In this document: positions 14,537 through 49,031 of the stretch, in pieces | Layout of the letters: each line of letters opens with the position of its first letter | Numbering within the stretch: the first letter of the stretch is position 1 | NCBI GenBank assembly: GCA_964533295.1 | Contig: CAZHLM010000003.1 | Span: 34,281-95,368, forward strand | Length of the DNA: 61,088 nucleotides | From: an uncultured Verrucomicrobiota bacterium | Lineage (GTDB): Bacteria > Verrucomicrobiota > Verrucomicrobiia > Palsa-1439 | Direction: 5' to 3' | Position numbers and translations under genes: made by a program | Notes under the pieces: generated by a model | Database searches by the model: none | The model's input: only the letters and a program-made list of their open reading frames with translations | Told to the model about the DNA's origin: nothing

Positions 14537-14554
14537 AGGGCCTCCGGGATTGGC

Positions 14555-14821: not shown

Positions 14822-14844
14822 GTTCGTTCTCCTGTTGGTTTTCT

Positions 14845-15573
14845 CTAATGATGCTCTTCCAGAGACTCGCTCAAATAGAGCGCGGACAACAACGTGAAAA
14901 TAAACGCCTGGATAAACGCCACGAACAATTCAAACGCCACCAAAATCACGCTCAATGCAAACGGCATCACCGCCGCCGCTTTCGCCACAACATTCGGTTG
15001 CTCCAGCAACCATACCCCGCCCACCATCGGCGCCGTGGCAAACGTCAGCAACACCATGTGCCCAGCCGTCATGTTCGCGAACAGACGAACCGCGAGGGAA
15101 AACGGCTCCGCCAACAACACCAGGAACATAATCGGGATGGCCGGTATCTGCACCCACAGCGGCGCCGGCAGCAGGAATTTCTTCTTGAAATAACCCCACG
15201 GTCCCAGCTTCACGATCCCGACCAATTGCGCCACGACAAAGACCAACACCGCCAGCGCCGCCGTGACATTGATGTTGCCGGTCGGCGAGTGAAACCCCGG
15301 CAGCGGAATCTTGCCAATCAGATTGGCGAACAAGATGAAAAAGAACAGCGTCGCGAAGAAACCAAACCACTTCCGCCCGTGGTCCCCGAGAAACTCGCGC
15401 ACGATGTTCTCTTCCACAAACCCGACCATCGCCTCGACGAGGTTGGCGTAGCGGCCGGTGGCGACCGTGCCCGCCGCAATGAGGCGCGCGCCGATCAACA
15501 AAATCACAAAGGCCACCGCGGCGGCGGACCAGACCATGATCACATCGCCCGTGATTCCGAGATTGATCTCCAT
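14845..15573 (-). CDS. atpB: ATP synthase Fo a subunit
   Basis: SPTGNINVT, LAVRLFANMTAGH (essential Arg), FELFVAFIQAFIF. Confidence 0.96.
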   Translation of the reverse strand: MEINLGITGDVIMVWSAAAVAFVILLIGARLIAAGTVATGRYANLVEAMVGFVEENIVREFLGDHGRKWFGFFATLFFFILFANLIGKIPLPGFHSPTGNINVTAALAVLVFVVAQLVGIVKLGPWGYFKKKFLLPAPLWVQIPAIPIMFLVLLAEPFSLAVRLFANMTAGHMVLLTFATAPMVGGVWLLEQPNVVAKAAAVMPFALSVILVAFELFVAFIQAFIFTLLSALYLSESLEEHH

Positions 15574-15589
15574 AACGTGTTCCTGTTGC

Positions 15590-15892
15590 TTACCGCTTCT
15601 GCGACCACATCTGGCGCAGTTTCACCACGATGGGCACGGTGTAACAAACCACGACCGCGCCCACCAACCATCCCCGACTCAGCCGGCTGGGCGGCACCGT
15701 CGCCACTAACGCCAGCACCACCAACAGCAATCCAATCCGAACCGCCGAATCCATCAACTGCCGGCCAAACGACGGCATCTCGCCGCGCAACCGCGCCTCG
15801 TTCTGCCGCCGCAACGACCGCAACTGCCACCACGCGTACGCCCCTCCCAAGACCGCCCCGGCAACCAGTCCGTTCCACGCCGCTGACTCCAT
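15590..15892 (-). CDS. atpI: AtpI-like membrane protein
   Basis: Start reassigned to ATG 15892 with AGGAGG SD upstream; three hydrophobic segments; directly before atpB. Confidence 0.65.
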   Translation of the reverse strand: MESAAWNGLVAGAVLGGAYAWWQLRSLRRQNEARLRGEMPSFGRQLMDSAVRIGLLLVVLALVATVPPSRLSRGWLVGAVVVCYTVPIVVKLRQMWSQKR

Positions 15893-15899
15893 TTCCTCC

Positions 15900-16127
15900 T
15901 TACCGGCGCGGCGGCCGGCCGCCTCCCTCCTGCATGACGGCCCGCCAGACCACGGCCATCCCCCCCAACGCGCCCGCCACAAAAAACACGATCAAAAACA
16001 GCGGCGCCCGTCCCGTGCGCTCGTCCAGCCACCACCCCACCGCCGTGATGACGGCAGTCACGACGACCATCTGGACTCCCAGCGCCATGTATGACCCGAC
16101 ACCGCGCAACTCCGGTAACTTTTTCAT
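15900..16127 (-). CDS. AtpZ/AtpI family small membrane protein
   Basis: Two TM helices with GWWLDERTGRAPLF pattern typical of AtpZ/AtpI; first gene of the atp operon. Confidence 0.85.
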   Translation of the reverse strand: MKKLPELRGVGSYMALGVQMVVVTAVITAVGWWLDERTGRAPLFLIVFFVAGALGGMAVVWRAVMQEGGGRPPRR

Positions 16128-16162
16128 CAGGCATTCACGTCAGACACAGCCGCTGAAAAGCG

Positions 16163-16178
16163 TGTGAAAAAAATCACA
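16163..16178. promoter_or_regulatory. TGTGA-N6-TCACA palindrome (CRP-family or Rex-type operator)
   Basis: Exact TGTGA-AAAAAA-TCACA in the divergent atp/ppx intergenic region. Confidence 0.6.
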
Positions 16179-16219
16179 ACCTACCACCTCGCGCAAGACC
16201 TTTTTTCAAAAACTTTTCC

Positions 16220-16228
16220 TGCTATAAC
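16220..16228 (+). promoter_or_regulatory. Extended -10 promoter element (TGcTATAAC) for ppx
   Basis: TG-n-TATAAC ending 6 nt before the ppx ATG at 16235. Confidence 0.55.
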
Positions 16229-16234
16229 CCAGGC

Positions 16235-17080
16235 ATGCGCCGCGCCGTCATTGATGTGGGAACCAACACCGTCAAGCTCCTCGTCGCCGATGTGACCGGC
16301 CACGAGATCACCGTCGTCGCCCAAGACGACGCCCCCACCCGCCTCGGAGAAAACGTGCAGCAAACGCGGCGGCTGGCTCCCGCCGCCGTTGCCCGCACCG
16401 CCGACGTGGTTGCGGATTACTGCCGGCAGGCCCGCCGTCTCGGCGCGTCCGATATCCGCGCCTTCAGCACCAGCGCGGCGCGCGACGCAACCAACCGGGC
16501 CGATTTCCTGAACGCCGTGCGGGATCGCTGCGGCTTGGCGGTCGAAGTCATCACGGGAGAACGCGAGGCGGCGCTGATTTACCAAGGCGTGATCTCGGAC
16601 CCGTTTTTTGCCGATCAGTCGCTGCTGGTGATGGACGTGGGCGGCGGCAGCGCGGAATTCATCCAGTCTCACCGTCGGGTCAGCCTTCCCTTGGGAGCGG
16701 TCCGCCTCATGGAAATGTTCCGCGATGATTTTGCCGCGCTTTGCGCCCACATCCGCGCGGCACTGGCGCCGGTGCTGACGACGTACCGGCAGGAGGGACG
16801 GTTGCTGGTGGCGACGGGTGGCACGATCATCACGCTGACGAAGCTGCTGCGCGAGCGCGCCGATCACCAGGTTCTGACAGAGCCGGAACTGCGCGCCCTC
16901 GTGCTCCACCTGAATGCGATGCCGCTGGACGCCCGCCGTCAGGTTCCGCGCCTGCCGCCCGACCGCGCAGATATCATTGTGGCCGGTGGCATGGTGTTCG
17001 TGCTTGCAATGGAGACTTTGGACGTGACGAAACTGACCTGCAGCACCCGCAATCTGCGGTACGGCGCGCTGCTGGATTAG
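16235..17080 (+). CDS. ppx: Ppx/GppA phosphatase family protein (short form)
   Basis: AVIDVGTNTVK, VITGEREA, MDVGGGSAE, SLPLGAVRL, DRADIIVAG, NLRYG. Confidence 0.9.
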   Translation: MRRAVIDVGTNTVKLLVADVTGHEITVVAQDDAPTRLGENVQQTRRLAPAAVARTADVVADYCRQARRLGASDIRAFSTSAARDATNRADFLNAVRDRCGLAVEVITGEREAALIYQGVISDPFFADQSLLVMDVGGGSAEFIQSHRRVSLPLGAVRLMEMFRDDFAALCAHIRAALAPVLTTYRQEGRLLVATGGTIITLTKLLRERADHQVLTEPELRALVLHLNAMPLDARRQVPRLPPDRADIIVAGGMVFVLAMETLDVTKLTCSTRNLRYGALLD

Positions 17081-17090
17081 CCCAAAAGGC

Positions 17091-17119
17091 TTGCGATTTT
17101 TGGACGCCTCGCGTACTGT
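17091..17119 (+). promoter_or_regulatory. Putative sigma70 promoter for metK-ahcY operon
   Basis: TTGCGA (17091-17096), 17 nt spacer, TACTGT (17114-17119). Confidence 0.5.
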
Positions 17120-17143
17120 TCGCCGCTTCAAAAAGGACCATTC

Positions 17144-18316
17144 ATGAGCAAAGGCCGGTATATCTTCTCGTCGGAATCCGTTGGTGAAGGCCACCCGGAC
17201 AAGGTTTGCGACACGATCTCGGATGCCGTTTTGGACGCCTGTCTGGCCCAGGACAAGTTCAGCCGCGTCGCGTGCGAAACGTATGCCAAATCGAATGTGG
17301 TGGTCGTGGGCGGAGAGATCACCACCCAGGCCAAACTTGATTTTGTGAAGATCGCTCGCGACGCAATTCGCGGGATCGGTTATGTGAACGACGATGACGT
17401 GTTCCACGCCGACAAGGTATTCGTGCAGGTTCTCGTCACCCAGCAATCGCCGGACATCGCCCAGGGCGTGGACGCGCGGAAAGCCAAAGGCAAGCGAACC
17501 GCCAAACAAGGGGCCGGTGATCAAGGGCTGATGTTCGGCTATGCCTGCAACGAGACACCGGAGTTGATGCCCGCGCCGATCATGTTTGCGCACCGGCTCG
17601 GCCGGGAACTGACGCGCATCCGCAAATCCGGCACGGTGGGCTGGCTCCGACCGGATGCCAAGTCGCAGGTCTCGGTCGTGTACGAAAACGACAAGCCGGT
17701 CGCGATCTCAAACGTGGTCATCTCCACGCAACATGCGGCGGATGTGTCGCACCGCGAGATCGAACGGTTCTGCATCGAACAAGTGATCAAGAAAGTGCTG
17801 CCCGCGCGACTGCTGACCAGCAAGACCGAGTACCTGATCAACCCGACCGGCCGATTCGTCATCGGCGGTCCCCAGGGAGATACCGGGCTGACGGGGCGCA
17901 AAATCATTGTGGACTCCTACGGCGGCATGGGCCGACATGGCGGGGGGGCGTTTTCCGGCAAGGATCCGACGAAAGTGGACCGCAGCGCCGCCTACATGGG
18001 CCGCTGGGTCGCGAAGAACGTCGTGGCGGCCAAGCTGGCCGCCCGGTGTGAGTTGCAGTTCGCGTACGCCATCGGCCATCCCGAGCCGGTCAGTGTCCAT
18101 GTGGACACCTTCGGGACGGGCGTGGTTTCCGACGACCGGATTGCCCGCGCGATTAACCGTGTGTTCAGCTTTCAACCGGCGGACATCATCGCTCAACTAG
18201 ACCTTCGCCGTCCCATTTACGGCCGTACCACCAATTACGGACACTTCGGCAAAAGCGATCCCGCGCTGACGTGGGAACGAACCGACAAGATAAAGGAATT
18301 GAAACGCGCCCTGTAG
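17144..18316 (+). CDS. metK: S-adenosylmethionine synthetase
   Basis: [26 protein letters not shown] signatures. Confidence 0.99.
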
Positions 18317-20438: not shown

Positions 20439-23400
20439 ATGAAACCCGCGTCTGCTAGCACGCCCGCGTCTCCCATGCTTCCGCTGGTCAGGAAGGTCGT
20501 CGTCGCAGGGCTGGTTTTAGGGCTGGGCGCGGCGGCGACCTCTCCCGGCTGGGCTTGGTCCACCCTGCCCGCGCGCACCAACGACACGCCCGGCTTTGTC
20601 CATTTCCCCTCCGCCGCCGACTGGCGCGACATCAACATTTACCACGTCATGACCGATCGCTTCTTCAACGGCGACACCGGCAACGACGCCGCCAACCCGC
20701 GCGGCACCGTTGACTACGCCGACCCCGACAAAATCCACGGGGGCGATTTCCTCGGCGTCCAACAAAAACTCGATTACCTCCAAATGCTCGGGGTGAAAGC
20801 CATCCTGTTGGCGCCGGTGCTGCACAACACCTGGGGCGCCTACCAAGGCTACGGCACCGGTGACTTCAATCAGATTGATCCCCACTGGGGTGGTCTCGCC
20901 GACCTGCGCGCGTTGATTGATGCCGCCCACGCCCGCGGCATGTACGTCTTCCTCGACATGGTCGTCAACCACGCCGCCGACCTGATTGATTCCGCCGACC
21001 CAGGCTACCCGGCCTTTCGGCTCACCCCCGAATACACGCCCCGCTGGAAACCCGAAGTCGGTTCCGTCCGCCACGTCGCGCCGTTTGACACGTTCGACAA
21101 GTTCTACATGCACGGCACGATGGAAAACTGGGACGACCCGATCCAGGCCGAGTTGGGCGATTATCCCGGCCTCGACAGCATTCGCACCACGCTGCCGCAA
21201 GTCCGGCAGGATTTCATCACGATCTACCGCGCCTTGATTGCCGCGACGGATTGCGACGGGTTTCGCGCCGACACCGCCAAACACGTCGAACTGGGCTTTT
21301 GGGACGTGTTCCTGCCGGCGATTGCCAGCGCCACGAGCGGCTTCGGCAAATCCAACTTCCTCATCTTCGCCGAAGCCACCAAGGGCACCGAGCCGGAACT
21401 CGGCGTCTATACGCAAAGCAATCGCTTCAACTCCGCCATCAACTTTCCGCTGCGCGGCACGTTCGACGCCGTGTTCATCGAAAACAGCGACACCGGCCGG
21501 CTCACCCATCATTTCCGCGACGCTCAACTGACCAATTATTCCGCCCGCGCCCGTTACCAACTCGTCAACTTCGTGGACAACCACGACGTCGCCCGCTACG
21601 CCGCCCGCCTCAACAGTCACCTCGACCGGCTCAAACTCGCCCTCACCTATCTCCACACCACCCTGCACATCCCTTACGTGTACTACGGCACCGAGCAGGC
21701 GTTCGACGGCGCCGGCGACCCCGACAATCGCGAAGACATGTTCGATGGTCTCTGGGAATTTGGTCCGTCGCTCGGCGACAACTTCGACTACACCCACCCG
21801 CTCTTCATCCACATCCGCAAACTCAATCTCCTCCGCGACGCCCTTCCCCCACTGCGTCGCGGTGGCTACCTCGAACGCTGGAGCACCTACCAGGCAACCG
21901 GCGGCGCCGGCCTCTACGTCTTCAGCCGCACCAACGGCACCGACGAAGTCGTCATCGCCCTCAACACCACCAACGCCACCCGCTCCGCCGCCAACATCCC
22001 GGTCGGCTACCCTGCCGGCACCCTCCTCCGCAACGTCGAGGATCCCGCCGACATCCTCACCGTCACCACCGGCTCGAACATCGCCGTCACCCTTGCCGGC
22101 TACACCGCCAAAATCTACCACCCCAACCTCCTCAACCTCCCGCCCACCATCCTCGCCCAAGCTCCCGGCCACTCCAGCAACAACATCCCCACCACCGCCA
22201 CGCTCTCGCTGAGCTTCGACAAGCCCGTCAACAAGCCGCTCATCGAAACCAACTTCGCCCTCGACCCGCTCGTCCCCGGCACCTTTGCCTGGTTTGATGG
22301 CGATCGCCGTTTCGTTTTCACCCCGGCCCGCCCGCTCGGCGCCAACACCCGCCACACGATCACCCTCGCCGCCCCTGCCGGGCTGGGCGCAGCCTTCCGT
22401 TCCTTCTTCGACACCACCGGCTACGCCACCCTCGGCGTCGCCGGCAGCTTCAACGGCTGGAACCCCGCCGCCAACAACATGACACTGGTCGCCCCGCATC
22501 TCTGGCGCTACGACACCACGTTCACCAACGCCACCGCCGTCCAATTCAAATTCACCGCCAACGGTTCCTGGGACCTCAACTGGGGCGAAACCAATCAAAC
22601 CAAGTCCACCCCGCCCCTGACCGGCACCGCCGAGTTCTTTGCCCCCAACAACATCACCGTGGCCGGCACCCTCCACGGCCCCTACCGCTTCGAGTTCAAC
22701 GACCAAACCTTCGCCTACTCCCTCGCCGTCCTCGATCCGCCGACCGTTCTCGCCGTCGCGCCCACCAACTCCCAATTCAACGTCCCGCTAACCACCCCCA
22801 TCACCGTCACCTTCAGCAAACCGATGAACCGCCCCGCCACCGAATCCGCCTTCGCGCTCGCCCCGCCTGTCACCGGCACCTTCACCTGGCTCGACGGCGA
22901 CACCCGCCTCGTCTTCACCCCGACCGCGCCCCTGACGATGCACACCACCTACACCCTCACCCTCGGCGTCGGCGCTCTCGCCACCAACGGCCAGGGACTC
23001 ACCGCCCCGCACCAAACCACCTTCGACACCGCCAGCGGCTACACCACCCTGAGCGTGGCCGGCACCTTCAACGGCTTCAACCCCGCCGCCAACAACATGA
23101 CCGTCGTCGGCAAAAACCTCTGGCAATGGGACACCACCTTCCTCAACACCCCCACCATCGCCTTCAAATTCGCCGCCAACGGCAACTGGAACATCAACTG
23201 GGGCGACAACAACCCCACCGGCACCACCATCCCACTGATCGGCACTGGCGAACACTTCGGTGCCGACATCCAAGCCACCGGCCCGCTCCACGGCACCTAC
23301 CGCTTCCTGCTCAACGACCAAACCGGCGCCTTCGCCCTCGTCGTGCCGGGAACCGACAGCGATGGCGACGGCGCGACCGACATGGACGAATTTCTTACCG

Positions 23401-23636
23401 GCACCAACCCCCTCAACGCCGCCGACGCCCTGCGCATCACCAACATCACCGCCCAGGCCGGCCACATCACCATCCAATTCACCACCGCCCCCGGCCGCCG
23501 CTACATCCTCGACACCCAACCACACCCCGCCGCGCCGTGGGTCCCTCTGCTCGGCCCCGCTGCCACCAACCAATTCACTCACCCCGGCGCCACCGTCGAA
23601 ACCAACCGCCTCTACCGGATCCGACTCGCCCCATGA
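20439..23636 (+). CDS. Secreted modular GH13 alpha-amylase-family enzyme with two Ig-like + starch-binding-like repeats and conserved C-terminal module
   Basis: GH13 regions LDMVVNH, GFRADTAKH, IFAEA, FVDNHD; two repeats of Ig-like (LSFDKPVN / VTFSKPMN) plus VAGSFNGWNP / VAGTFNGFNP domain. Start uncertain (20391, 20439 or later). Confidence 0.88.
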   Translation: MKPASASTPASPMLPLVRKVVVAGLVLGLGAAATSPGWAWSTLPARTNDTPGFVHFPSAADWRDINIYHVMTDRFFNGDTGNDAANPRGTVDYADPDKIHGGDFLGVQQKLDYLQMLGVKAILLAPVLHNTWGAYQGYGTGDFNQIDPHWGGLADLRALIDAAHARGMYVFLDMVVNHAADLIDSADPGYPAFRLTPEYTPRWKPEVGSVRHVAPFDTFDKFYMHGTMENWDDPIQAELGDYPGLDSIRTTLPQVRQDFITIYRALIAATDCDGFRADTAKHVELGFWDVFLPAIASATSGFGKSNFLIFAEATKGTEPELGVYTQSNRFNSAINFPLRGTFDAVFIENSDTGRLTHHFRDAQLTNYSARARYQLVNFVDNHDVARYAARLNSHLDRLKLALTYLHTTLHIPYVYYGTEQAFDGAGDPDNREDMFDGLWEFGPSLGDNFDYTHPLFIHIRKLNLLRDALPPLRRGGYLERWSTYQATGGAGLYVFSRTNGTDEVVIALNTTNATRSAANIPVGYPAGTLLRNVEDPADILTVTTGSNIAVTLAGYTAKIYHPNLLNLPPTILAQAPGHSSNNIPTTATLSLSFDKPVNKPLIETNFALDPLVPGTFAWFDGDRRFVFTPARPLGANTRHTITLAAPAGLGAAFRSFFDTTGYATLGVAGSFNGWNPAANNMTLVAPHLWRYDTTFTNATAVQFKFTANGSWDLNWGETNQTKSTPPLTGTAEFFAPNNITVAGTLHGPYRFEFNDQTFAYSLAVLDPPTVLAVAPTNSQFNVPLTTPITVTFSKPMNRPATESAFALAPPVTGTFTWLDGDTRLVFTPTAPLTMHTTYTLTLGVGALATNGQGLTAPHQTTFDTASGYTTLSVAGTFNGFNPAANNMTVVGKNLWQWDTTFLNTPTIAFKFAANGNWNINWGDNNPTGTTIPLIGTGEHFGADIQATGPLHGTYRFLLNDQTGAFALVVPGTDSDGDGATDMDEFLTGTNPLNAADALRITNITAQAGHITIQFTTAPGRRYILDTQPHPAAPWVPLLGPAATNQFTHPGATVETNRLYRIRLAP

Positions 23637-24025
23637 ACCGCCTCCGCCTCCTCGCCTTCCTCGCCCTGGCCGCCACCGCCGTCGCCTTCCCCACCTGGAT
23701 TGGCGTCCCGCCTCCCCTCCAGCGCCACGACGGCAAAAACCCCGGTACATTCACCGTCTGCCTCAATGAAGACTACCGCGGCCTCCGCGCCAACGTCGGC
23801 ATCCAGGTCAACGACGGTCCCTGGCGCGAATTCCCCATGACCGCCGACGGCTCCGTGGCCGGTCATTCCAAATGGACCCACACCCCAAAAGAACCCTTTC
23901 CGCCCGGGGCCACCGTGAAATACTTTTTCCACGGCTGGGACGACTGGGGCGGCAACATCTGGGACACCAACAACGGCCGCAACTACACCTTCCTCGTCCC
24001 CCACCCCGTCTCCACAACGCCCTGA
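23633..24025 (+). CDS. Small secreted carbohydrate-binding-module-like protein
   Basis: Signal peptide, aromatic-rich body, WDTNNGRNY motif seen in starch-binding CBMs; ATGA-coupled to the GH13 gene. Confidence 0.65.
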   Translation: MNRLRLLAFLALAATAVAFPTWIGVPPPLQRHDGKNPGTFTVCLNEDYRGLRANVGIQVNDGPWREFPMTADGSVAGHSKWTHTPKEPFPPGATVKYFFHGWDDWGGNIWDTNNGRNYTFLVPHPVSTTP

Positions 24026-24060
24026 CCTCCCCGCTCCGCCATCCGCCGACCGTCCCGCCC

Positions 24061-25119
24061 TCACTCACGTCCCTTCGCCCGCAACCGCTCCCGCATGTCG
24101 CGGTTCCGTTGCTTCCACTTCGCCTTTTCCTGCAACTGCGCGCGCTGACTCTGCTGCCGTTCCAGGAACGCCAGCTCGCGCTGCAACTTCTGAAAACTCT
24201 CATACCGCTCGCGAGCCAACGACCCCGTCGCCAACGCCGTTTGCACAGCACAACCCGGCTCGGCGTCGTGGCGGCAATCCCGAAACCGACAACTCCGGGC
24301 CAACGCCTCAATCTCATCAAACGCCATCGCCAACCCCGACTCATCCGACCACAACTGCAACTCGCGCATCCCCGGATTATCAATAATCAACGCGCCCCCC
24401 GGCAACCGCACCAACTCGCGATGCGACGTGGTGTGCCGGCCGCGACTGTCCCCCGCCCGCACCGACCCGGTCGCCAACCGCTCCTCGCCAAGCAGCCGGT
24501 TGATCAGCGTGGATTTTCCCGCCCCCGATGACCCCACCAACGCGATGGTCCGACCGGGGCGCAGGTACGGCAGCACCGCCTCCACTCCATCGCCGTGCTG
24601 CGCCGCGATCAGATGCACCGCCACCCCGGCCGCCAACCGCTCGATCTCCGCCGCCCGCGCGGCGGCATCGGCGCACACATCACGCTTATTCAGCAGGATC
24701 ACCGGCCTTGCGCCGCTGTCCCATGCCGGCGGCAGATACCGTTCGATGCGCCGCGGATTGTAGTCCCCGTCCAATCCGCAGACGATGAACAACGTGTCCA
24801 CATTGGCGGCCACAACCTGTTCTTCGGTGAGTTCACCGGGATGCTTGCGGGAAAACCGACTGCGACGCGGCAACACCGCTTGAATCACCGCCTCCTGCTC
24901 CACCGCCACCCAGTCTCCCACCGCCGGGTAATCGGCCCGACTCGCCGCCTGGTGCCGAAACTTGCCGGACGTCTCCGCGTGAAGCTCGCCCGCCGCCCCG
25001 ACCACCGTGTACACGCCCCGCGCGGTCCGCACCACGCGCGCCGGTGTCCACGTCGGCTGCTGCAACGCGGCAAACGTCGCGCCCCACGCCTCGTCCCAAC
25101 CCCAATCCGCCAGACTCAT
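24061..25119 (-). CDS. rsgA: Ribosome small subunit-dependent GTPase A
   Basis: VAANVD, LNKRD, GSSGAGKS, GRHTT, DNPG and CRFRDCRHDAEPGC Zn site. Confidence 0.95.
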   Translation of the reverse strand: MSLADWGWDEAWGATFAALQQPTWTPARVVRTARGVYTVVGAAGELHAETSGKFRHQAASRADYPAVGDWVAVEQEAVIQAVLPRRSRFSRKHPGELTEEQVVAANVDTLFIVCGLDGDYNPRRIERYLPPAWDSGARPVILLNKRDVCADAAARAAEIERLAAGVAVHLIAAQHGDGVEAVLPYLRPGRTIALVGSSGAGKSTLINRLLGEERLATGSVRAGDSRGRHTTSHRELVRLPGGALIIDNPGMRELQLWSDESGLAMAFDEIEALARSCRFRDCRHDAEPGCAVQTALATGSLARERYESFQKLQRELAFLERQQSQRAQLQEKAKWKQRNRDMRERLRAKGRE

Positions 25120-25877
25120 GAGGAGGGTCGCAGTACGCGAATCCGGTCGCGCAGCTCGGCGGCGCGCTCGAACTGCTGCTCGGCCACCGCCGTCCGCAAG
25201 GCCCGCTCCAGCCGTTCCAATTCACTCAAGGGGCGGGTGATCTCAATCTGCTCTGCCAACTCACGGAGCGCCTGCAGCGACCGGTCGCGTTCGAACTTAA
25301 ACGTCTCGTCGTCCAACTCCGGCAACGCCTCGATCCGTTCGCTGGCCCGCCGCACAATCGCCAACGCAGCCGCGTGATGCTCGCGATCCCACTCGATCAT
25401 CGCCGCCGCAATCGCGTTCATGCGCAGAACGTAGGGGCGCCATTGCTCCAAATGCAACCGGTCTTCGCGACGGTGGGCATACTGCCGTACCAGATCGAAC
25501 AGCCCGATGTTGCGATGCGTGTCCCGCACGACCCGCGGCCAGTCCTTGATCTGGAACAGATGCAGATACCGGTAGTAATACAGCACCGCTTCCGTGAACA
25601 ACTCCGCGCATTCCTCGGCGCTGAGCCGAAACGCCGCCTCCCGGCCGGCCGCGCGCGCCGCTTCCAACCGCTGAAGCTGATGAACCAGCGCCGACTCGAC
25701 GCCGTACGGCCGCGCGCCATCGGGACGCCCCTCCAACTCGTACTGCTCGATGCCCATCGGCGTGCGGACCTGCATCACCTCCCGCCCATCCGCGCCGTGC
25801 GCCAAACGCACATGGTCGTCGGGATCAAACGGCCACGCCCGCAACACGTCCCGCAAATCAGGTTTGGGATCCTTCAC
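25116..25877 (-). CDS. UVR (UvrB/UvrC) motif-containing protein of unknown function
   Basis: Helical protein ending in LRTAVAEQQFERAAELRDRIR UVR motif; GTG start. Confidence 0.8.
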   Translation of the reverse strand: MKDPKPDLRDVLRAWPFDPDDHVRLAHGADGREVMQVRTPMGIEQYELEGRPDGARPYGVESALVHQLQRLEAARAAGREAAFRLSAEECAELFTEAVLYYYRYLHLFQIKDWPRVVRDTHRNIGLFDLVRQYAHRREDRLHLEQWRPYVLRMNAIAAAMIEWDREHHAAALAIVRRASERIEALPELDDETFKFERDRSLQALRELAEQIEITRPLSELERLERALRTAVAEQQFERAAELRDRIRVLRPSS

Positions 25878-25917
25878 ACCGGCAGGCTAGACCACGCCCC
25901 CGCGAAACGCAAGCCAC

Positions 25918-27144
25918 CTACGCATCCAGTCGCAGGCTCGCGTACGTCACCACCGAATTCGTCTCCGCCTCGTAGCTCTGATCGTAATGCAACAGCCGGC
26001 CATCGCTGACCAAGCACCCATGCAGCAGCGTGTACAACGTCGGCCACGCATCCACCCGCCGCCGGTCCTCCTCCTGGTAGATGAACCGCAACAACTCCGG
26101 CGCGTCGCACGCCTCGACCAGCGACAACATCCGCCGATCCTCGATTTCCAACTGCCGCCGCACCTCGTCGTTGACCGTGAACTCATCGCCAAATCGCCCG
26201 CCCACATGCGCCAGGTCCACGCTCGCCACCACACACACCCGCCGGCCCGATTCCGCGATCGTCTCGCGCAACGCCTTTACGAATGCCGCCACTTGCCGGT
26301 CGGCCAGCGGATCCTGGCCGGCCTCCAGCAAATCGTGAAACGAACCGGTCAGCAACGGCGCCATCCGAAACGACCCCGCCAGAGCGTGCCGCGCGTACAC
26401 CGCCTGAAACTCCACCGAATGTTCCCGCCGATGCGCCAACTCGTCGGCGAACAAATCAAACGGCAGCTTCCCGGCCAGCGCCTCCAAGAACTCCACGTCC
26501 GTCGCCACCGTTCCCAACGGCGTCGCAAAATCCTTTCGCGTCCCCACAAACCGGTTTTTCGTCGGCGCATGCGCCACACCCAGCACCACCAACGTGTCCA
26601 ACGCCGGTTGCCGGCCCAGTTGCGCGTACGCCCACGCAAAGGCCGGTCCGCCGCGCCGCAAATCAATATGCGGAACCACCAGCGCCACCGGCAGCTTGCC
26701 CGGCGCCGCGCCATTCGCCCCGGGTCCCTGGGGCGGTTCCCAATGCCTCGCAAACACGCGCCGAATCCCCGCCGCCGTGGCCGGATACGACTGGCCAGCG
26801 TGCGCCGCGGACCGATGCGGGGCTTGCCGGTACCGTTCCAATTCCGCCGCCACATGCGCCGCCAACCGCGGACTGTCCAACCACAACGCCTCGTCCAGCT
26901 CCCGAATGAATTTCTCGATCGCCCCCACCGCCACGGTCTGCCCGGTCACCTGCTTCACCCGTCTCTGAATCTGCGCCACGGTGTGTTTTCCGTCCAGACA
27001 CTGCAACACCACGCCGGCCGACGCCGCCACGGCCATCACCTGGTCGGTCAATCCCTGCGGATCGCGCAAGCAGAGCACCTCCCGCCCGCCGTCCCGCGCC
27101 GGGAAAATTTCCACCGCCCGCAACCGGGGTCGTTCCACGCTCAT
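25918..27144 (-). CDS. amrB: MEMO1-family (AmmeMemoRadiSam protein B) long form with N-terminal extension
   Basis: AHAGQSYP, VVPHIDLRRG, HRREHSVEFQ, ASVDLAHVG; start reassigned to ATG 27144. Confidence 0.88.
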   Translation of the reverse strand: MSVERPRLRAVEIFPARDGGREVLCLRDPQGLTDQVMAVAASAGVVLQCLDGKHTVAQIQRRVKQVTGQTVAVGAIEKFIRELDEALWLDSPRLAAHVAAELERYRQAPHRSAAHAGQSYPATAAGIRRVFARHWEPPQGPGANGAAPGKLPVALVVPHIDLRRGGPAFAWAYAQLGRQPALDTLVVLGVAHAPTKNRFVGTRKDFATPLGTVATDVEFLEALAGKLPFDLFADELAHRREHSVEFQAVYARHALAGSFRMAPLLTGSFHDLLEAGQDPLADRQVAAFVKALRETIAESGRRVCVVASVDLAHVGGRFGDEFTVNDEVRRQLEIEDRRMLSLVEACDAPELLRFIYQEEDRRRVDAWPTLYTLLHGCLVSDGRLLHYDQSYEAETNSVVTYASLRLDA

Positions 27145-27204
27145 CGGCACCCATCGTAGCACGGCTCGACACCCTTCCGCCATTCTGCTAATCAACCTCC
27201 GCTC

Positions 27205-28242
27205 ATGAAACTGCGTCAGGAACTGCTCGGCCGCGCCCGCCGCCTGGTCATCAAAGTCGGCACCGGCCTACTGACCGACGCGCAAAACCGGGTCTCCCGC
27301 CCGCAGATGGCCGATCTGGTCGCCCAACTGGCCGCGCTCCACGCCGCGGGCAAGCAGGTCATCCTCGTCTCCTCGGGCGCCATCGGCGCCGGCATGGCCC
27401 AACTCGGATGTCACAAGCGCCCCACGCGCCTCGACGAACTGCAAGCCGCCGCCGCCATCGGCCAAAGCAAGCTGATGGCGATTTACGATGAACTGTTTGG
27501 CGCGCACGACATCACCGTCGCCCAAATTCTTCTGACCCATGCCGACCTCAAAGACCGCTCCCGCCATCTCAACGCCCAAAACACCCTCACCACCCTCCTC
27601 GCCCGGCGCGTCCTGCCCATCATCAACGAAAACGACACCGTCTCGGTGGACGAAATCAAGTTTGGCGACAACGACCGGCTCGGCGCCCTGACCGCCACAT
27701 TGATGGATGCGGATCTGCTGGTGATTCTCTCACACGTCGAAGGCTTGCTCGACCGCACCGGCCAACGCATCCCCCTCGTCCCCACCGTCACGCGCGAAAT
27801 CGAAGCCCTGGCGGGCGGCACCGACCGTGTCACCAGCGTCGGCGGCATGAAATCAAAACTCGAAGCCGCCAAAATCGTCACCCGCAGCGGCGCGCCCATG
27901 ATCATCGCCCGCGGCGACCAACCGGACGTGCTGGCCCGAATCCTGGCCGGCGACGAGATCGGCACGTTGTTCCTGCCCGCCGACACCCGGCTGGCCCACC
28001 GCAAACGCTGGATCGCCTTCTTTCAACGTCCCACCGGGGCCTTGATTGTGGATGACGGCGCCCGCCGCGCGGTTCGCGAAGCCGGCAAAAGCCTGCTGGC
28101 CAAAGGCATTCTTCGCGCCGAAGGCGACTGCACCCCGGGCACCGTCGTCAGCATTCGCGACACGACCGGTCAGGAATTCGCCCGCGGCCTGCTGCGCGCC
28201 GGCAACATCCGCGTCCACCGCGACGACCTCGCCTTGCTCTAA
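27205..28242 (+). CDS. proB: Glutamate 5-kinase
   Basis: VIKVGT, VSSGAIGAG, AAIGQ, PIINEND, FGDNDRL, shortened PUA domain. Confidence 0.96.
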   Translation: MKLRQELLGRARRLVIKVGTGLLTDAQNRVSRPQMADLVAQLAALHAAGKQVILVSSGAIGAGMAQLGCHKRPTRLDELQAAAAIGQSKLMAIYDELFGAHDITVAQILLTHADLKDRSRHLNAQNTLTTLLARRVLPIINENDTVSVDEIKFGDNDRLGALTATLMDADLLVILSHVEGLLDRTGQRIPLVPTVTREIEALAGGTDRVTSVGGMKSKLEAAKIVTRSGAPMIIARGDQPDVLARILAGDEIGTLFLPADTRLAHRKRWIAFFQRPTGALIVDDGARRAVREAGKSLLAKGILRAEGDCTPGTVVSIRDTTGQEFARGLLRAGNIRVHRDDLALL

Positions 28243-28323
28243 CCGCCCCGATTCACCCCGGGGAAACCGTCCCCTGGCCGCACTGTCGTCCCGCCCCGCC
28301 CCCCAACCCTCTGCTCCTTTCGG

Positions 28324-28359
28324 TGCACGACTTTGTAACAATTGTTACAATGTTATGCA
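28324..28359. repeat. AT-rich inverted repeat with perfect 18-bp core TTGTAACAATTGTTACAA
   Basis: Core at 28333-28350 is its own reverse complement; TGCA arms at 28324-27/28356-59 share the same centre. Confidence 0.8.
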
Positions 28360-28460
28360 AAGCAGGAGCGAACGGGTTCCCGCGCGTGGTTGCGTCGCGA
28401 TTCGCTGGCGGATGGCGCGGAGGGTTCGAGGCGCGGGCCTTCCGCTGTCTCGTGTTCGGT

Positions 28461-30398
28461 TCAGGGAACAACACGTACCCGGTAGAACTGGTTGGTCAGC
28501 AGCGCGCCGCCACTGTGCCGGTAGTTGGTGCTGGTGGTGGTGGTAAAAATCTGGCCGCTCAGGTTCGTGAACACGCCACCGCCGAGTTCCCCGGTGTGTT
28601 GGACGATGTTGGTCCGCGCGAGCGCCGTCTGCCACGTCACGTGGATGTCGTTTCCGATCCGCTCGATCGCGGTAATTCGCAGCAGCGAATCGGGGTCGGT
28701 CGGATCGGTGCCGGCGCGGAATTCCGCGCCGTCGGTCTGACCGTCGCCGTCCGCATCCTCGTCGGCGCTGGGTCGCAACGGCGGCAGGCCGTAGAGTTGT
28801 TCCCAGTCATTCGGCAGAGCATCTCCGTCGGCATCCAGCCCCGGAGTCAACACCACCGCGCCCGTGGTCAAGGCGCCGCCGCTCCAGATGAACCGCGCGC
28901 AGGAGTTGGTCACGACGAGCCGGTCAACGTGGAGAGTGCCGCCGCCGAGCGTGAAGGTTCCGGTCTGCACATTCAACGGCGCGGTCCCGGTGGCGTTGGT
29001 CACCACCACATCGCCGCCGGTTTGGTGGACCAAGCCGGTGGCCGTACAGGCGGCGTTGCCGAGGAGGAAATGTTCAAGCGCGCGAATCGAACCACCGGCG
29101 ATCGTGAACGTGCCGACCGAGCCGGCTTGGGTGCCGGCTTGCAGGCGGCGGGTACGGATGACGCCGTTGGAAACGGTCAATTCGCCCGCGCCACCGTAGC
29201 CGACGATGACATGGCCGTTGGAGTTGGTGGCCAGCAACTGACCACCGGTGATCCATGCGGCGGCGGTCGCGCCCGGGCCGTCGCCGATGCCGTAGCCGTT
29301 GGCGCAAACCAGCACGCCGTTGGTCAGCCGCAACGTCCCGCGCGTACCGGCCTGGAAGCCGAGGCTCAGGTCCGGCAAGGCCACCGTTCCGCCCTGCACC
29401 GTCAACGTTCCCTCGCCCGTCTGGCCGACGATGGCGACGCCGTTACTGATGCCGACCTGCCCGGCGCTGACGATCAGGTGCCCGTCCACGAACAAACCGG
29501 TATCACTGGTGACGGTGGCGGGTGAGTTGGTAAGCACGACCTGGCCGCCGGTCAGCCAGACCGCACCGCTGCCACCATTCCCGCCCACTTCGAGAAGCGG
29601 ACCGGCGGCAAACGTGCCACCGCGCACCGTCAGTGTGCCGGTTCCCCCCGACCGACCGATATCCACCCAGTACGCCGCCACCAACCCGTTCGACAACGTC
29701 AATTGTCCGGAGCCCGTCAGGCCAATGAGCAACTCGGCGCTGAGGTTGGTGTTCAGCAACGAACCGCCGGTGACCCAGACCATGCCCGTCCCTGTGCCTG
29801 CCGCGGGCACCTGGCACTTTCGTTCCACCTCAACGCGCCCGCTCGAGATCGTGAGTGTGGACGGCGGGCGCAGGCTGATGCCCAGGGTGCGCGTCGCCAG
29901 CGTGCCTCCGCGCACCTGAACGGCCACGGGATTGACGCCGCCGAGCTGAGTGGTTCCCAACGGGACGCGCAACACGCCCCCCTCCCGAAACTCCACCAAC
30001 CCATCCACGTCGGCTCGGCCCTGGACCTGCACGACGCCATTGGTCAGCCGCAACGCGCTGGCGGTGGCCATGGTCAGGTTGCTGCGAATCAACAGCGGGA
30101 CCAGCGCCCCCGAGTTCGCCACGGCCAGCGTGTTCGTTGCGCCACCAACTCCCACGATAACCAAATTGCTAATTGTCAACGTCTGCGGATGAAACTGCGC
30201 CGTCACATCATCAATCGTCACCGTCTTGGTGAAGGCGTTGCCGATTCGACAGACCGCCTGCGTCGCCGCCGGCAACCCCTGCGACCAGTTCGCTGCCACG
30301 TCCCAGAAGCCACTGCCCGTATTGACCCAGTTATTCGTCTGCGCCCCCACCCCAGCGGCGCCGAGAAGCATCGCTCCGATGATCCACCACCTGTGCAT
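28461..30398 (-). CDS. Secreted beta-strand repeat protein (T5SS/PEP-CTERM-associated-repeat-like) with conserved C-terminal module
   Basis: Start reassigned to ATG 30398 (signal peptide MHRWWIIGAMLLGAAGVGA); repeated G-x-G-x-L-T-[LV]-x-x-G units; DxDGD tail. Confidence 0.78.
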   Translation of the reverse strand: MHRWWIIGAMLLGAAGVGAQTNNWVNTGSGFWDVAANWSQGLPAATQAVCRIGNAFTKTVTIDDVTAQFHPQTLTISNLVIVGVGGATNTLAVANSGALVPLLIRSNLTMATASALRLTNGVVQVQGRADVDGLVEFREGGVLRVPLGTTQLGGVNPVAVQVRGGTLATRTLGISLRPPSTLTISSGRVEVERKCQVPAAGTGTGMVWVTGGSLLNTNLSAELLIGLTGSGQLTLSNGLVAAYWVDIGRSGGTGTLTVRGGTFAAGPLLEVGGNGGSGAVWLTGGQVVLTNSPATVTSDTGLFVDGHLIVSAGQVGISNGVAIVGQTGEGTLTVQGGTVALPDLSLGFQAGTRGTLRLTNGVLVCANGYGIGDGPGATAAAWITGGQLLATNSNGHVIVGYGGAGELTVSNGVIRTRRLQAGTQAGSVGTFTIAGGSIRALEHFLLGNAACTATGLVHQTGGDVVVTNATGTAPLNVQTGTFTLGGGTLHVDRLVVTNSCARFIWSGGALTTGAVVLTPGLDADGDALPNDWEQLYGLPPLRPSADEDADGDGQTDGAEFRAGTDPTDPDSLLRITAIERIGNDIHVTWQTALARTNIVQHTGELGGGVFTNLSGQIFTTTTSTNYRHSGGALLTNQFYRVRVVP

Positions 30399-30445
30399 GC
30401 CCGTCCCCCTACCAAATTTTCGTGCGCCGGGCGAGCAGACTTTCC

Positions 30446-30473
30446 TTGCAAATCCCGCCGCGCCGCCTACCAT
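30446..30473 (+). promoter_or_regulatory. Putative sigma70 promoter for ispA
   Basis: TTGCAA (30446-51), 16 nt spacer, TACCAT (30468-73), 9 nt before the GTG start. Confidence 0.45.
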
Positions 30474-30482
30474 CCGCGCTCC

Positions 30483-31349
30483 GTGAAGCCTTTCTCTCTG
30501 GACGATTATCTGCGGCGCACCACCCAGCGCGTGGACGCGGCACTCGACAAACTGCTGCCCGCCGAGAACACGCCGCCCGCCACCCTCCACAAGGCGATGC
30601 GCTACTCGATTTTTGCCGGCGGCAAACGCATCCGCCCCGCGCTCTGTCTCGCCGCCTGCCAGGCCGTCGGCGGCCGCACCAAAGCCGCGCTGCCGCTGGC
30701 GTGCGCCGTCGAGTGCATCCACACCTACTCGCTGATTCACGACGACCTGCCGTGCATGGACGACGATGATTTCCGCCGCGGCAAGCCGACGAACCACAAA
30801 GTCTTCGGCGAAGGCATCGCCGTGCTGGCCGGGGATGCGTTGCTCACCCACGCCTTCACCCTCGTCGCCCGCGATGTCCGGTACGTCAAAGAACTCGCCC
30901 TGGCCGCCGGCAGTCTGCGGTTGATTGCCGGCCAGGTGCAGGATTTGGAAAACGAAAGCCGGCAAGCCACGCTGACCGAAGTCAAAACCACCCACCTCAA
31001 CAAAACCGCCGCGCTGATCATGGCCAGCATTCGATTGGGCGCCATGGCCGGCAACGCCACGCCCGGCGAACTGAAACGACTCACCAAGTACGGCGAGGAT
31101 CTGGGGCTTGCGTTTCAGGTGGTGGACGACGTTCTCGACGTGACGAGCACGAAAGAAGTCATGGGCAAAAGCGTCGGTGCCGACGCCAAGAATCAGAAGA
31201 GCACGTACCCGAAACTGCTCGGCGTGGACGGCAGCCGCCGGTACGCCGCCGACCTGATCGCCGACGCCCACCGGCAGTTAAGCGGCTTCGGCCCGGCCGC
31301 CCAACCACTCCGCGCGATCGCCGATTTCTTCCTCACGCGGCAGAACTAG
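30483..31349 (+). CDS. ispA: Polyprenyl (farnesyl/geranylgeranyl) diphosphate synthase
   Basis: GGKRIRP, HDDLPCMDDDDFRRG, KTAAL, FQVVDDVLD; GTG start at 30483. Confidence 0.93.
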   Translation: MKPFSLDDYLRRTTQRVDAALDKLLPAENTPPATLHKAMRYSIFAGGKRIRPALCLAACQAVGGRTKAALPLACAVECIHTYSLIHDDLPCMDDDDFRRGKPTNHKVFGEGIAVLAGDALLTHAFTLVARDVRYVKELALAAGSLRLIAGQVQDLENESRQATLTEVKTTHLNKTAALIMASIRLGAMAGNATPGELKRLTKYGEDLGLAFQVVDDVLDVTSTKEVMGKSVGADAKNQKSTYPKLLGVDGSRRYAADLIADAHRQLSGFGPAAQPLRAIADFFLTRQN

Positions 31350-31369
31350 CACGCCTAACAAACCTCCTT

Positions 31370-31498
31370 GTGGGAGGGGCTTGCGCCCGCCACTTTCTCG
31401 GAAAAGCCGGTGGGCCGAGCGTCCCCGCGAGGCGGGGCGTGACACTCCGCTCGCGGCGCCGCTCGCGCCACCGGTCGCGCCCGGAAGGGCGCTGCCAC
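31370..31498. repeat. Cluster of REP-like palindromes between convergent genes
   Basis: GTGGGAGGGGCTTGCGCCCGCCAC hairpin (31370-93), imperfect inverted pair 31409-31472, and a 23/24 reverse-complement match (31475-98) to the 24-mer at 43751 and 61053. Confidence 0.75.
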
Positions 31499-31551
31499 AA
31501 CAGCAGTTTGGGCTTTGGCGCGGGTTGCGAAACGGGTGTCGCCGCCGCTCG

Positions 31552-33015
31552 TCACCGCTGAAGTCGAACACGATAAAAGCCGGCGGTCTCTATGCTCACC
31601 GTGGTCTCACCCGTCGCGGCGCAGACGATGTTCGTGTGCGGTTGCCATTGGCCGGTGGCGATGTCGGGGCGGGTCTCGACGATGTACTGGCGACCGGCCG
31701 AGGTTGTGAACGTGAGGTTGCTGGCGGTGATGGCGGTGATGCGCAACGCGCTGAGCGCGTTCAACGGATGGGTGCCGGCCAGAAACTCCTGCCGGTGCGT
31801 GAACCCGTCGCCGTCGAGATCGTCGCCGGGTTCACCGGGGTACAACTGCTCGAACCAGTCCGGCAGGCCATCGGCGTCACTGTCCTTCGCCACGATCTGG
31901 TAAATGCGGCCGTTGCCGCGATGGGCCACGTACAACTCGCCACATTCATCTTCGCCAAACGTGCTGATCCCGAAATCCGCGAAATCCAGCGGCGTGCCCA
32001 CTGTCCATACCCCGGCAGCTTCCGTCGCCGCCCAAATCCGACTGGAACAGTAGTCGGCGAAGAAGTACCGGCCCACCAGCGGCGGGATGCGGCTGCCGCG
32101 GTAGCGATAGCCGCCGGTAATGGACCAGCATGGTCCCGGCGCGACGTGATCGTAGGTGATAATCGGGCGCGTCATGGCCGCCGTCGCGCACGCGGTTGCG
32201 CAGGTGTTCGACAGGACGCCTTCCATGCATTTCCAGCCGTAGTTTTGGCCGCCGAGACTACCGGCCGTTTGAAAGTTCACTTCTTCCTGCGCGTCCTGGC
32301 CGACATCGGCGATGAACAGGTCGCCCGTGTCGCGGTCGAAGCTGAACCGAAACGGATTGCGCAAGCCGGTCGCCCAGATTTCCGGCCGCGCCCCCGCTGC
32401 GCTCACAAATGGATTGTCGGGCGGGATCGCATACGGCAGCGCCGAGTTGACGTCAATCCGCACCATTTTGCCCAGGAGCGTGCCGAGATCTTGCGAGTTG
32501 TTGTTGGGGTCACAGGTGCCGCCACCGTCACCGGGCGCAAAATAGAGATAGCCGTCCGGCCCGAATTGGATGCCGCCGCCGTTGTGATTGTCCTGGCCCG
32601 GATGCGCAACCCGGATGATCTCCACGCCGGTGGCGGGGTTAACGACGTTGGTGGTCGGCGGCGCGGCGGTGTACCGCCACACGACGTTGCTGCTGCCGTT
32701 GGCGTTGGTGAAATAGACAACGAAATGTCCGTTGGTCCGGTAGCCTGGATGAAATGCGAGACCGAGCAATCCCTGTTCCCCGCTAAACAACGTCTGCCCG
32801 GTGATGTCGAGGAACGCCGTCGCCAGCAGGTTCGTCCCCACGATCACCCGCACGCGGCCGGCCTGTTCAACGACGAACAATCGGCCCGAGCCGTCCCGCG
32901 CGCTGGCGATGTCCACCGGCTGCGCCAACCCGGCGACGATCTCGTGCAGTTGAAACTCCTGCGCCGCCACCCAGGTGGCGACCCCGCAAATCAGTCCGAT
33001 CCACACGCGCCACAT
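31552..33015 (-). CDS. Secreted PQQ-dependent sugar dehydrogenase (Gdh-B/YliI-type beta-propeller) with conserved C-terminal module
   Basis: LFVVEQAG, GEQGLLGLAFHP, NHNGGGIQFGPDGYLY, GLRNPFRFSFD, DVGQ, NYGW; start ATG 33015. Confidence 0.9.
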   Translation of the reverse strand: MWRVWIGLICGVATWVAAQEFQLHEIVAGLAQPVDIASARDGSGRLFVVEQAGRVRVIVGTNLLATAFLDITGQTLFSGEQGLLGLAFHPGYRTNGHFVVYFTNANGSSNVVWRYTAAPPTTNVVNPATGVEIIRVAHPGQDNHNGGGIQFGPDGYLYFAPGDGGGTCDPNNNSQDLGTLLGKMVRIDVNSALPYAIPPDNPFVSAAGARPEIWATGLRNPFRFSFDRDTGDLFIADVGQDAQEEVNFQTAGSLGGQNYGWKCMEGVLSNTCATACATAAMTRPIITYDHVAPGPCWSITGGYRYRGSRIPPLVGRYFFADYCSSRIWAATEAAGVWTVGTPLDFADFGISTFGEDECGELYVAHRGNGRIYQIVAKDSDADGLPDWFEQLYPGEPGDDLDGDGFTHRQEFLAGTHPLNALSALRITAITASNLTFTTSAGRQYIVETRPDIATGQWQPHTNIVCAATGETTVSIETAGFYRVRLQR

Positions 33016-45963: not shown

Positions 45964-45967
45964 CTGT

Positions 45968-48984: not shown

Positions 48985-49031
48985 AGGGCTTGCGCCGTCA
49001 CGGGGCGCTCGCTAATGCTGGCGGGTGACGC

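Follow-up and report, generated by a model that had tools for sequence, protein, structure and literature searches.

A portable C-terminal module with a predicted truncated Fn3 fold on unrelated secreted proteins of Verrucomicrobiota

Why do three putatively secreted proteins with unrelated cores end in the same kind of tail? This question is raised by a stretch of 61,088 nucleotides, called the window in this study, from an uncultured Verrucomicrobiota bacterium (contig CAZHLM010000003.1 of GenBank assembly GCA_964533295.1). The proteins are a GH13 enzyme of the alpha-amylase family, a beta-strand-repeat protein, and a dehydrogenase of the glucose/sorbosone type (a pyrroloquinoline quinone, PQQ, dehydrogenase). 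An earlier note on this DNA had proposed that the tail is an export or anchoring signal served by its own machinery, in parallel with the C-terminal domain (CTD) of the T9SS (type IX secretion system). We followed up this proposal computationally. The tail proved to be a C-terminal module found on many unrelated proteins of this phylum, with a predicted fold that is Fn3-like, and its role is most plausibly sought in functions that all of its carriers could share.

The shared tail and its predicted fold

The tails of the GH13, beta-repeat and PQQ proteins are homologous, with pairwise BLASTP E values of 1.6e-13, 6.8e-23 and 5.6e-15. When the beta part alone was compared in the same pairwise manner, E values of 1e-6, 2e-13 and 2e-3 were obtained; the likeness of the three tails is far above chance. 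What the earlier note had read from the translations was all found there, namely the three open reading frames (ORFs), the positions of the tails, the quoted motifs (DxDGDGxTxxxEFxxGTxP-x6-LRITxI and [FW]xTxx[GA]Rx[YN]I, both present in 3/3 tails) and termini in identical register, which are LYRIRLAP in the GH13, FYRVRVVP in the beta-repeat and FYRVRLQR in the PQQ protein, each directly followed by the stop codon. A hidden Markov model (HMM) built from the tails and run against the six-frame translation of the window matched exactly these three tails. The note was also right that the tail is not of the PEP-CTERM type and carries no transmembrane helix, as the maximum Kyte-Doolittle hydropathy over 19 amino acids (aa) was at most 1.0 in all three tails, while a true PEP-CTERM protein is encoded elsewhere in the window.

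The plan of the tail is one or two calcium (Ca)-loop-plus-helix units, similar to those of thrombospondin type 3 (TSP3) repeats and dockerins, followed by a beta-sandwich of about 70 aa. The second, upstream unit in the beta-repeat and PQQ tails has the form DxDxDxLPxxWEQLY. AlphaFold2 (AF2) placed helices at residues 20-25 and 46-52 of the beta-repeat tail, with a predicted local distance difference test (pLDDT) score above 90. We examined 46 diverse tails: TSP3_bac (PF18884) matched 34 of them at E<=1 (best 1e-8), and the sole recurrent NCBIfam match, Amuc_1099_fam, covered a 24-residue stretch, the Ca loop only, in 37. The Ca-loop linker is thus common to the tail and to TSP3 repeat proteins (PF18884; NCBIfam MtsD and the Amuc_1099 family), but those models cover the loop and not the sandwich, and the scores of the tail against the TSP3 and Amuc_1099 family models are far below the family cut-offs.

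For the terminal ~70 aa, no Pfam or NCBIfam model gave a match at E<=1 in any of the 46 tails, and the Pfam fn3 HMM itself detected 0/46 at this threshold. The suspicion that such tails carry only a generic label was therefore correct, in that no model of either library goes beyond the TSP3 label. However, when the tail profile was aligned by hhalign with an alignment of bacterial fn3 domains, a probability of 96% was obtained (E 2.4e-9, Fn3 columns 1-76 of 94). The tail HMM also cross-matched true Pfam fn3 domains, stopping 12-15 residues short of their ends, and the best sequence match in the PDB was 3mpc_A, an "Fn3-like protein" (E 4e-4, residues 16-75 of 103). As these comparisons agree while the Pfam fn3 HMM is silent, the tail belongs to Fn3 at the level of the superfamily rather than the family.

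Structure prediction led to the same fold. Models of the PQQ tail and of the beta-repeat tail were built with AlphaFold (pLDDT 85.9 and 90.4, respectively), and both consist of short helices followed by six main strands, as assigned by DSSP. In Foldseek searches against the PDB, the top 50 matches of the PQQ model were almost all FN3 domains and FN3-derived binders; the beta-repeat model matched Ig/Fn3 folds and, weakly, CBM56 and CBM21 folds. The structural comparison with T9SS CTDs that the earlier note had called for did not bear out a relationship, as the 50 best Foldseek matches listed for each model contained no T9SS CTD.

The alignment to columns 1-76 corresponds to Fn3 strands A to F, and the chain ends where strand G would start. 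A typical end is ...RFYRVRLVP-COOH, with the chain stopping 4 residues beyond YR[VI] in strand F. Since it stops at Fn3 column 76, the conserved last strand, FYRVRL, is the ordinary Fn3 F strand with its tyrosine-corner motif. Of the parallel drawn with the T9SS CTD, the conserved terminal register has held up, whereas the strand that carries it belongs to an Fn3-like fold. In proteins with two tails, the internal copy runs from FYRVRLGQ directly into a linker and the next Ca loop, also without a G strand. Having six strands is therefore a property of the domain itself and is not caused by the stop codon. Among the beta segments, conservation is strongest in strands A (LRIT) and F. Like Fn3 (PF00041; PDB 3mpc), the tail has its strands in the order A, B(W), C(YxV), C', E(TxYxD), F(YRVR) and possesses a tyrosine corner; it differs from Fn3 in lacking strand G, in its fusion to a TSP3 Ca loop, in its fixed C-terminal place and in the conserved ...RLVP end. 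From sequence profiles and models taken together, the sandwich is a member of the Fn3 superfamily without the seventh strand, and we rate the tail as a truncated Fn3 subfamily, as yet without a database model, that is used as a C-terminal tag in Verrucomicrobiota.

Terminal position, lineage and cargo

To see where the tail occurs, we scanned 1.84 billion representative proteins, in clusters at 50% identity, with the tail HMM using HMMER. At E<=1e-3, 3298 clusters were matched (a figure that includes cross-matches to ordinary Fn3), and 153 were matched at E<=1e-10. Position was analyzed in 157 proteins, comprising the best 150 of the HMMER scan and 7 from a first, word-indexed search. In 137 of the 157 (87%), the last tail copy lay no more than 5 aa from the C-terminus. 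The exact register, 4 residues after YR[VI], was found in 107 (78%) and proline as the last residue in 106 (77%) of these 137 terminal tails. This proline is kept among tails that are only about 30-40% identical overall, while internal copies have Q or E in its place. The C-terminus of the tail is under selection.

The census for terminality thus supports what the earlier note had expected, with the reservation that duplicated tails and a few internal copies exist. The tail HMM also picked up P0027 and P0069, two long proteins in which 8-12 canonical fn3 repeats are combined with a T9SS Por_Secre_tail; as the HMM cross-matches ordinary Fn3 in this way, the counts of internal copies and of total clusters are inflated. 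We considered whether internal tandem copies contradict terminality and rejected this, as many such matches are ordinary Pfam fn3 domains, in part within proteins that end in a T9SS Por_Secre_tail. Taken together, the tails are mostly terminal and mostly on proteins with signal peptides, and the domain is not a characterized binding module; these were among the points on which the earlier note had staked its proposal.

Lineage was examined with a degenerate DNA pattern for FYRVRLVP plus stop codon in the GTDB species representatives. It retrieved 99 stretches, of which 96 came from about 45 metagenome-assembled genomes (MAGs) of Verrucomicrobiota (Verrucomicrobiia, Limisphaerales, Pedosphaera and one Chthoniobacterales). 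The other three were treated as chance matches, as there was no tail in those stretches. One MAG held at least 11 and another at least 9 copies of the exact terminal motif, and 27 of the 83 loci with a tail match held two or three tails within 8 kb, like the window. Among 25 tails that had not been selected by the DNA pattern, 19 ended no more than 3 aa from the stop codon; the remaining 6 were first copies of double tails, frameshift remnants, or the protein L085 described below. The tail is essentially restricted to Verrucomicrobiota and is present in multiple copies per genome.

Several variants were seen. The double-tail proteins P0013, P0015, P0025, P0116 and L027:1-924 carry a TSP3-tail, a linker of about 55 aa with a Ca loop, and a second TSP3-tail. 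Their internal copy is a distinct subtype (VSFTSVSGKYYSLERCDF...), which ends in FYR[VI]xLGQ instead of ...LVP. In three short ORFs (L055:2738-3028, L075:3335-3589 and L077:2381-2608), the last 20-35 residues of the tail (...TNYLDxGxATNxPxxFYRVRLVP) follow unrelated sequence, which gives them the appearance of tail-bearing genes that have suffered a frameshift or are in decay.

The cores of 43 full-length tail proteins were very diverse: besides GH13 and GSDH, they included RCC1, beta-helix/pectate lyase, M36 and sedolisin peptidases, apiosidase-like proteins, PhoD, purple-acid and calcineurin-type phosphatases, PKD, LVIVD and Chlamydia-PMP repeats. Within the window as well, the description of unrelated cores (GH13, GSDH, beta-repeat) with a shared C-terminal module proved correct. 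Homologues of the beta-repeat core were screened for a different anchor, such as PEP-CTERM or an autotransporter domain; of 83, 75 carried the tail and none carried PEP-CTERM. Signal-peptide-like N-termini were found by a crude heuristic in 47 of 58 complete tail-bearing ORFs, compared to 91 of 325 other long ORFs. That all three window proteins have signal peptides, as had been claimed, agrees with this trend, although their N-termini resemble Sec signal peptides by inspection only. There is good support for reading the three tails as copies of one portable module, placed C-terminally, that is specific to Verrucomicrobiota and is carried by Sec-exported proteins with unrelated cores. Word-indexed homologue searches with tail profiles yielded only fragments of at most 196 aa. 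In public databases, the proteins are named "hypothetical", "TSP3 repeat-containing" or "beta strand repeat-containing", and in the literature on Verrucomicrobial C-terminal sorting, an Fn3 tail, TSP3_bac and Amuc_1099, no description of this module was found.

The tail-bearing genes and their surroundings

The three genes and the parts of their products are given in Table 1. In the GH13 protein, Pfam detected Alpha-amylase (E 1e-44) and Big_5 (E 1.5e-22), and the layout is signal peptide, GH13 catalytic domain, two copies of Big_5 plus an X25-like module (the X25-like match being weak) and tail. The two copies form a tandem duplication at residues ~590-985 (window ~22150-23350, + strand) between the catalytic domain and the tail; each copy spans about 200 aa and is made up of a Big_5 Ig-like domain and an X25/CBM-like module with the motifs NGWNPAANNM...FKF(T/A)ANG(S/N)W. 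P0009 of the HMMER scan is this same protein, starting at MKPASAST. Directly downstream, a 130-aa ORF with a signal peptide (MNRLRLLAFLALAATAVA...) is present at 23633-24025 (+), the ATG of which overlaps with the final codon and the stop codon of GH13. This overlap suggests translational coupling. The sole Pfam match of this ORF was a weak one, to DUF6209 (E 5e-4), and its product might assist the amylase as an accessory protein or as a partner that binds starch. The beta-repeat protein is weakly similar to the T5SS/PEP-CTERM-associated repeat (TIGR04393, E 0.017) and is identical to P0275, which comes from a 6.8-kb contig of the Logan assembly of SRR10095373; exact look-ups of the GH13 and SecA products of the window gave no record. 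The PQQ dehydrogenase matched Pfam GSDH (E 2e-40) and NCBIfam TIGR03606 (E 3e-20).

Table 1. Positions in the window of the three tail-bearing genes and of the parts of their products
Feature	Position	Strand	Details
GH13 alpha-amylase-family secreted protein	20439..23636	+	1065 aa from M at 20439; ORF opens at 20391
GH13 protein, putative Sec signal peptide	20439..20561	+	MKPASASTPASPMLPLVRKVVVAGLVLGLGAAATSPGWAWS; by inspection of the translation
GH13 tail, single TSP3/dockerin-like Ca-loop-plus-helix unit	23355..23429	+	DSDGDGATDMDEFLTGTNPLNAADA; TSP3_bac E 1.7e-4, 21.8 bits
GH13 tail, predicted Fn3-like six-strand beta-sandwich	23430..23636	+	LRITNI...LYRIRLAP plus stop codon; alignments, hhalign versus Fn3
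Beta-strand-repeat secreted protein	28461..30398	-	645 aa, begins MHRWW; ends in tail
Beta-repeat protein, putative Sec signal peptide	30342..30398	-	MHRWWIIGAMLLGAAGVGA, followed by QT; by inspection
Beta-repeat tail, two Ca-loop-plus-helix units	28683..28838	-	LDADGDALPNDWEQLY... and DADGDGQTDGAEFRAGTDP; units start at 28838 and 28757; TSP3_bac E 1.7e-4
Beta-repeat tail, predicted Fn3-like six-strand sandwich	28461..28682	-	LRITAI...FYRVRVVP plus stop codon; AF2 pLDDT 90.4; Foldseek Ig/Fn3 folds
Glucose/sorbosone-dehydrogenase-type (PQQ) secreted protein	31552..33015	-	likely start M at 33015; ORF opens with TTG at 33042
PQQ dehydrogenase, putative Sec signal peptide	32962..33015	-	MWRVWIGLICGVATWVAA, followed by QE; by inspection
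PQQ tail, two Ca-loop-plus-helix units	31747..31884	-	DSDADGLPDWFEQLY... and DLDGDGFTHRQEFLAGTHP; units start at 31884 and 31821; TSP3_bac E 0.009
PQQ tail, predicted Fn3-like six-strand sandwich	31552..31746	-	LRITAI...FYRVRLQR plus stop codon; AF2 pLDDT 85.9; Foldseek; hhalign

The tail genes are located amid housekeeping genes (MetK, AhcY, RsgA, a UVR-motif protein, a Memo-like protein, ProB, a polyprenyl synthase, PyrE and SecA), and the window also contains ATP synthase genes and genes for RNase Y, MgsA and PheT. Three long ORFs at 13994-16167 (+) and 16181-17593 (-), which are possible genes for products of 284, 439 and 470 aa, had no Pfam match at E<=1e-4 or 1e-3. A Tad/Flp-type set at 1206-4455 (+) begins with a T2SSE-family ATPase (E 3e-67), after which come two membrane proteins of the T2SSF family that are TadB/TadC-like; no link between this set and the tail was found. 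The genuine PEP-CTERM protein is encoded at 44515-45963 (+; Pfam PEP-CTERM, E 3e-5), and beside it is an exopolysaccharide-type cluster (44515-56295) with two ELM1-like proteins, two GT4 glycosyltransferases, an asparagine synthase homologue (AsnB) and an FkbM methyltransferase. Because of this PEP-CTERM protein, the same genome uses at least two types of C-terminal tag. No gene among these surroundings stands out as an obvious partner of the tail. The tail resembles the PEP-CTERM/exosortase system in being a C-terminal tag on secreted proteins of the same genome, and the beta-repeat core is similar to a repeat associated with that system; however, the tail has no PEP motif, transmembrane helix or basic cluster, and the PEP-CTERM protein of the window served as a positive control for this distinction.

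Neighboring genes were compared by clustering all ORFs of at least 150 aa in the 99 loci, and the clusters obtained consisted only of families that bear the tail, of shadow ORFs antisense to these and of housekeeping genes, with no recurrent neighbor lacking a tail. A prepilin motif was present in 5 of the 99 loci and nowhere in the window, and the tail was not associated with prepilin-like genes. Neither a donor strand nor genes for a periplasmic chaperone or an usher were seen in the window or in the 8-kb neighborhoods, and PorU, PorV, PorK, PorL, PorM, PorN and Sov were absent from the 61-kb window.

Possible roles of the tail

As the substrates of the carriers are unrelated, the function of the tail should be one that is common to all of them, and the diversity of the cores speaks against the tail serving to bind the substrates of the individual enzymes. 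By analogy with known modules, the tail could well be a common tag that retains or displays cargo at the envelope or surface by docking to a shared partner, and this is the reading that we favor, albeit tentatively. The tail would dock in a Ca-dependent manner to this partner, either a protein or a surface glycan, in parallel with the dyad of dockerin and X-module, and would take no part in catalysis or in binding the enzyme's own substrate. Contact would most likely be made through the free C-terminus, which is under selection, and through the edge that strand F leaves open. The likeness to dockerins and X-module-dockerin dyads lies in tandem DxDxDG loop-helix units beside an Ig-like module, placed C-terminally on diverse secreted enzymes, and it suggests possible Ca-dependent docking to a surface scaffold. 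The tail differs from the dyad in its reversed order (Ca loops, then the Ig-like module) and in its Gram-negative-type Verrucomicrobial host, and we know of no cohesin-like partner for it. Double tails and the presence of two Ca-loop units would fit with avidity or with a docking module.

Several observations weigh against docking to a shared partner. No candidate for a partner or for machinery was found in the window or among the neighbors of the 99 related loci. There was no match to Pfam Dockerin_1 (PF00404) at E<=0.1 in the three window proteins; as two loop-helix units are nevertheless predicted in two of the three tails, the resemblance to dockerins is architectural only. The TSP3_bac scores of the window proteins (21.8, 21.8 and 16.3 bits) are below the Pfam gathering cut-off of 25 bits, although the DxDxDG motif is clear by eye. 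Two proteins, L003:1110-6047 and L087:5130-8000, end in the Fn3-like FYRVRLVP sandwich without a preceding TSP3 Ca loop, so that the Ca unit is frequent and not obligatory. A 997-aa ORF, L085:765-3755, has two full internal tails and then about 540 aa more; what follows its tails is a run of TSP3 repeats and an unannotated C-terminal region of about 400 aa ending in FCDGCNWQAP, and its architecture may be polymorphic-toxin-like. Moreover, Fn3 domains are often inert spacers in secreted enzymes, and AF2 gave a confident monomer with six strands, so the structure does not require the idea of an open edge.

This leads to an alternative that we regard as somewhat unlikely, namely that the tail is a generic Fn3-type spacer, stabilizer or carbohydrate-binding module without a common partner, with its register resulting from shuffling of a 3' cassette within the clade and from capping of the last strand. 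Membership of the Fn3 superfamily would favor such a module, as Fn3/Ig modules are common in glycoside hydrolases, the GH13 protein of the window itself carries Big_5 and X25-like modules, the beta-repeat model weakly matched CBM56 and CBM21, and YRVR is also typical of ordinary bacterial Fn3 domains. However, binding of a shared substrate is improbable when the cores act on starch, phosphate esters, proteins and, by oxidation, sugars, or consist of adhesin-like repeats; the stop position and terminal proline are conserved at about 30% identity, which neutral inheritance does not predict; and the tail is nearly always paired with a Ca-binding-type unit (34/46 tails). The same conservation is what one would expect of a true sorting or export signal, for which an outer-membrane translocon, a shuttle or a sortase-like peptidase would recognize the sandwich in the periplasm after Sec and then remove the tail or use it for covalent attachment. 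This is the fate of the T9SS CTD, which is cleaved while its cargo is attached to anionic lipopolysaccharide. The extreme C-terminal place, the conserved register of the stop codon and a terminal proline that is kept at 30-40% identity (Q/E internally) are consistent with a signal of this kind, as are the many unrelated cargoes per genome, their signal peptides, the confinement to one lineage and the absence of any existing model that covers the tail. The T9SS CTD (Por_Secre_tail, PF18962/TIGR04183) is indeed similar in being a C-terminal beta-sandwich of about 70-80 aa without a transmembrane helix, on unrelated Sec cargo in one lineage. Nevertheless, we consider a sorting signal of this type unlikely: models PF18962, TIGR04183 and that of the type B CTD gave no match at E<=0.1 in the three window proteins or at E<=1 in the 46 tails, while Por_Secre_tail was detected in P0027 and P0069 with this same Pfam library; the closest relatives are Fn3 domains, and the 50 best structural matches listed for each model include no T9SS CTD; the tail is built of six strands and not seven, its hosts are Verrucomicrobiota and not Bacteroidota/FCB, and sorting signals do not usually occur as tandem double tails or as internal copies; no cleavage motif is conserved between core and tail besides the Ca loop; and neither a PorU/PorV-type partner nor any other machinery candidate was identified in the searches of the window and the 99 loci. 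Of the original proposal, the portable terminal tag is therefore retained. As no partner or machinery was found, a sorting system with its own machinery is plausible but unproven and stays at the level of inference.

A different explanation takes the missing strand as its starting point. An incomplete Ig-like fold might be completed in trans, with a G strand supplied by an anchor protein or by another tail through donor-strand complementation, as in chaperone-usher pilins, so that cargo would be tethered or polymerized on the surface. The alignment to Fn3 strands A to F only, with the chain ending there, the strong conservation of strands A (LRIT) and F, and the existence of double tails speak in its favor. 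Strand G is missing by alignment, yet AF2 gives a confident, closed-looking monomeric sandwich of six strands, and the searches described above identified no donor strand, chaperone or usher and no prepilin-like association. We therefore consider completion in trans to be very unlikely. According to a broader proposal, the TSP3 unit and the G-strand-less Fn3 tail with its selected ...YRVRLVP-COOH end might be the recognition element of an undescribed surface display or export pathway of Verrucomicrobiota, in which dozens of Sec-exported enzymes and adhesins per cell would be captured at their free C-terminus or at the edge left open by strand F. The capture would involve complementation of a beta-strand or a PDZ-like reader of the C-terminus, together with dedicated envelope machinery, and the tail would be an analogue of the T9SS CTD with an independent origin. 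We consider this proposal unlikely.

Verrucomicrobiota of the Limisphaerales/Pedosphaerales type are abundant degraders of polymers in soil and freshwater, and to our knowledge, essentially nothing is known about the secretion and surface retention of enzymes in these bacteria. The tail is a candidate for a new curated domain model, as its carriers are now labeled only "TSP3 repeat" or "hypothetical", and it offers an experimental entry point to a docking partner or an export machinery. If the reading based on the missing strand were true, an incomplete Ig-like fold would here be put to a new use, outside pilus assembly. As an easily modeled tag on dozens of unrelated secreted proteins per genome, the tail provides a bioinformatic handle on the surface and secreted proteome of these organisms.

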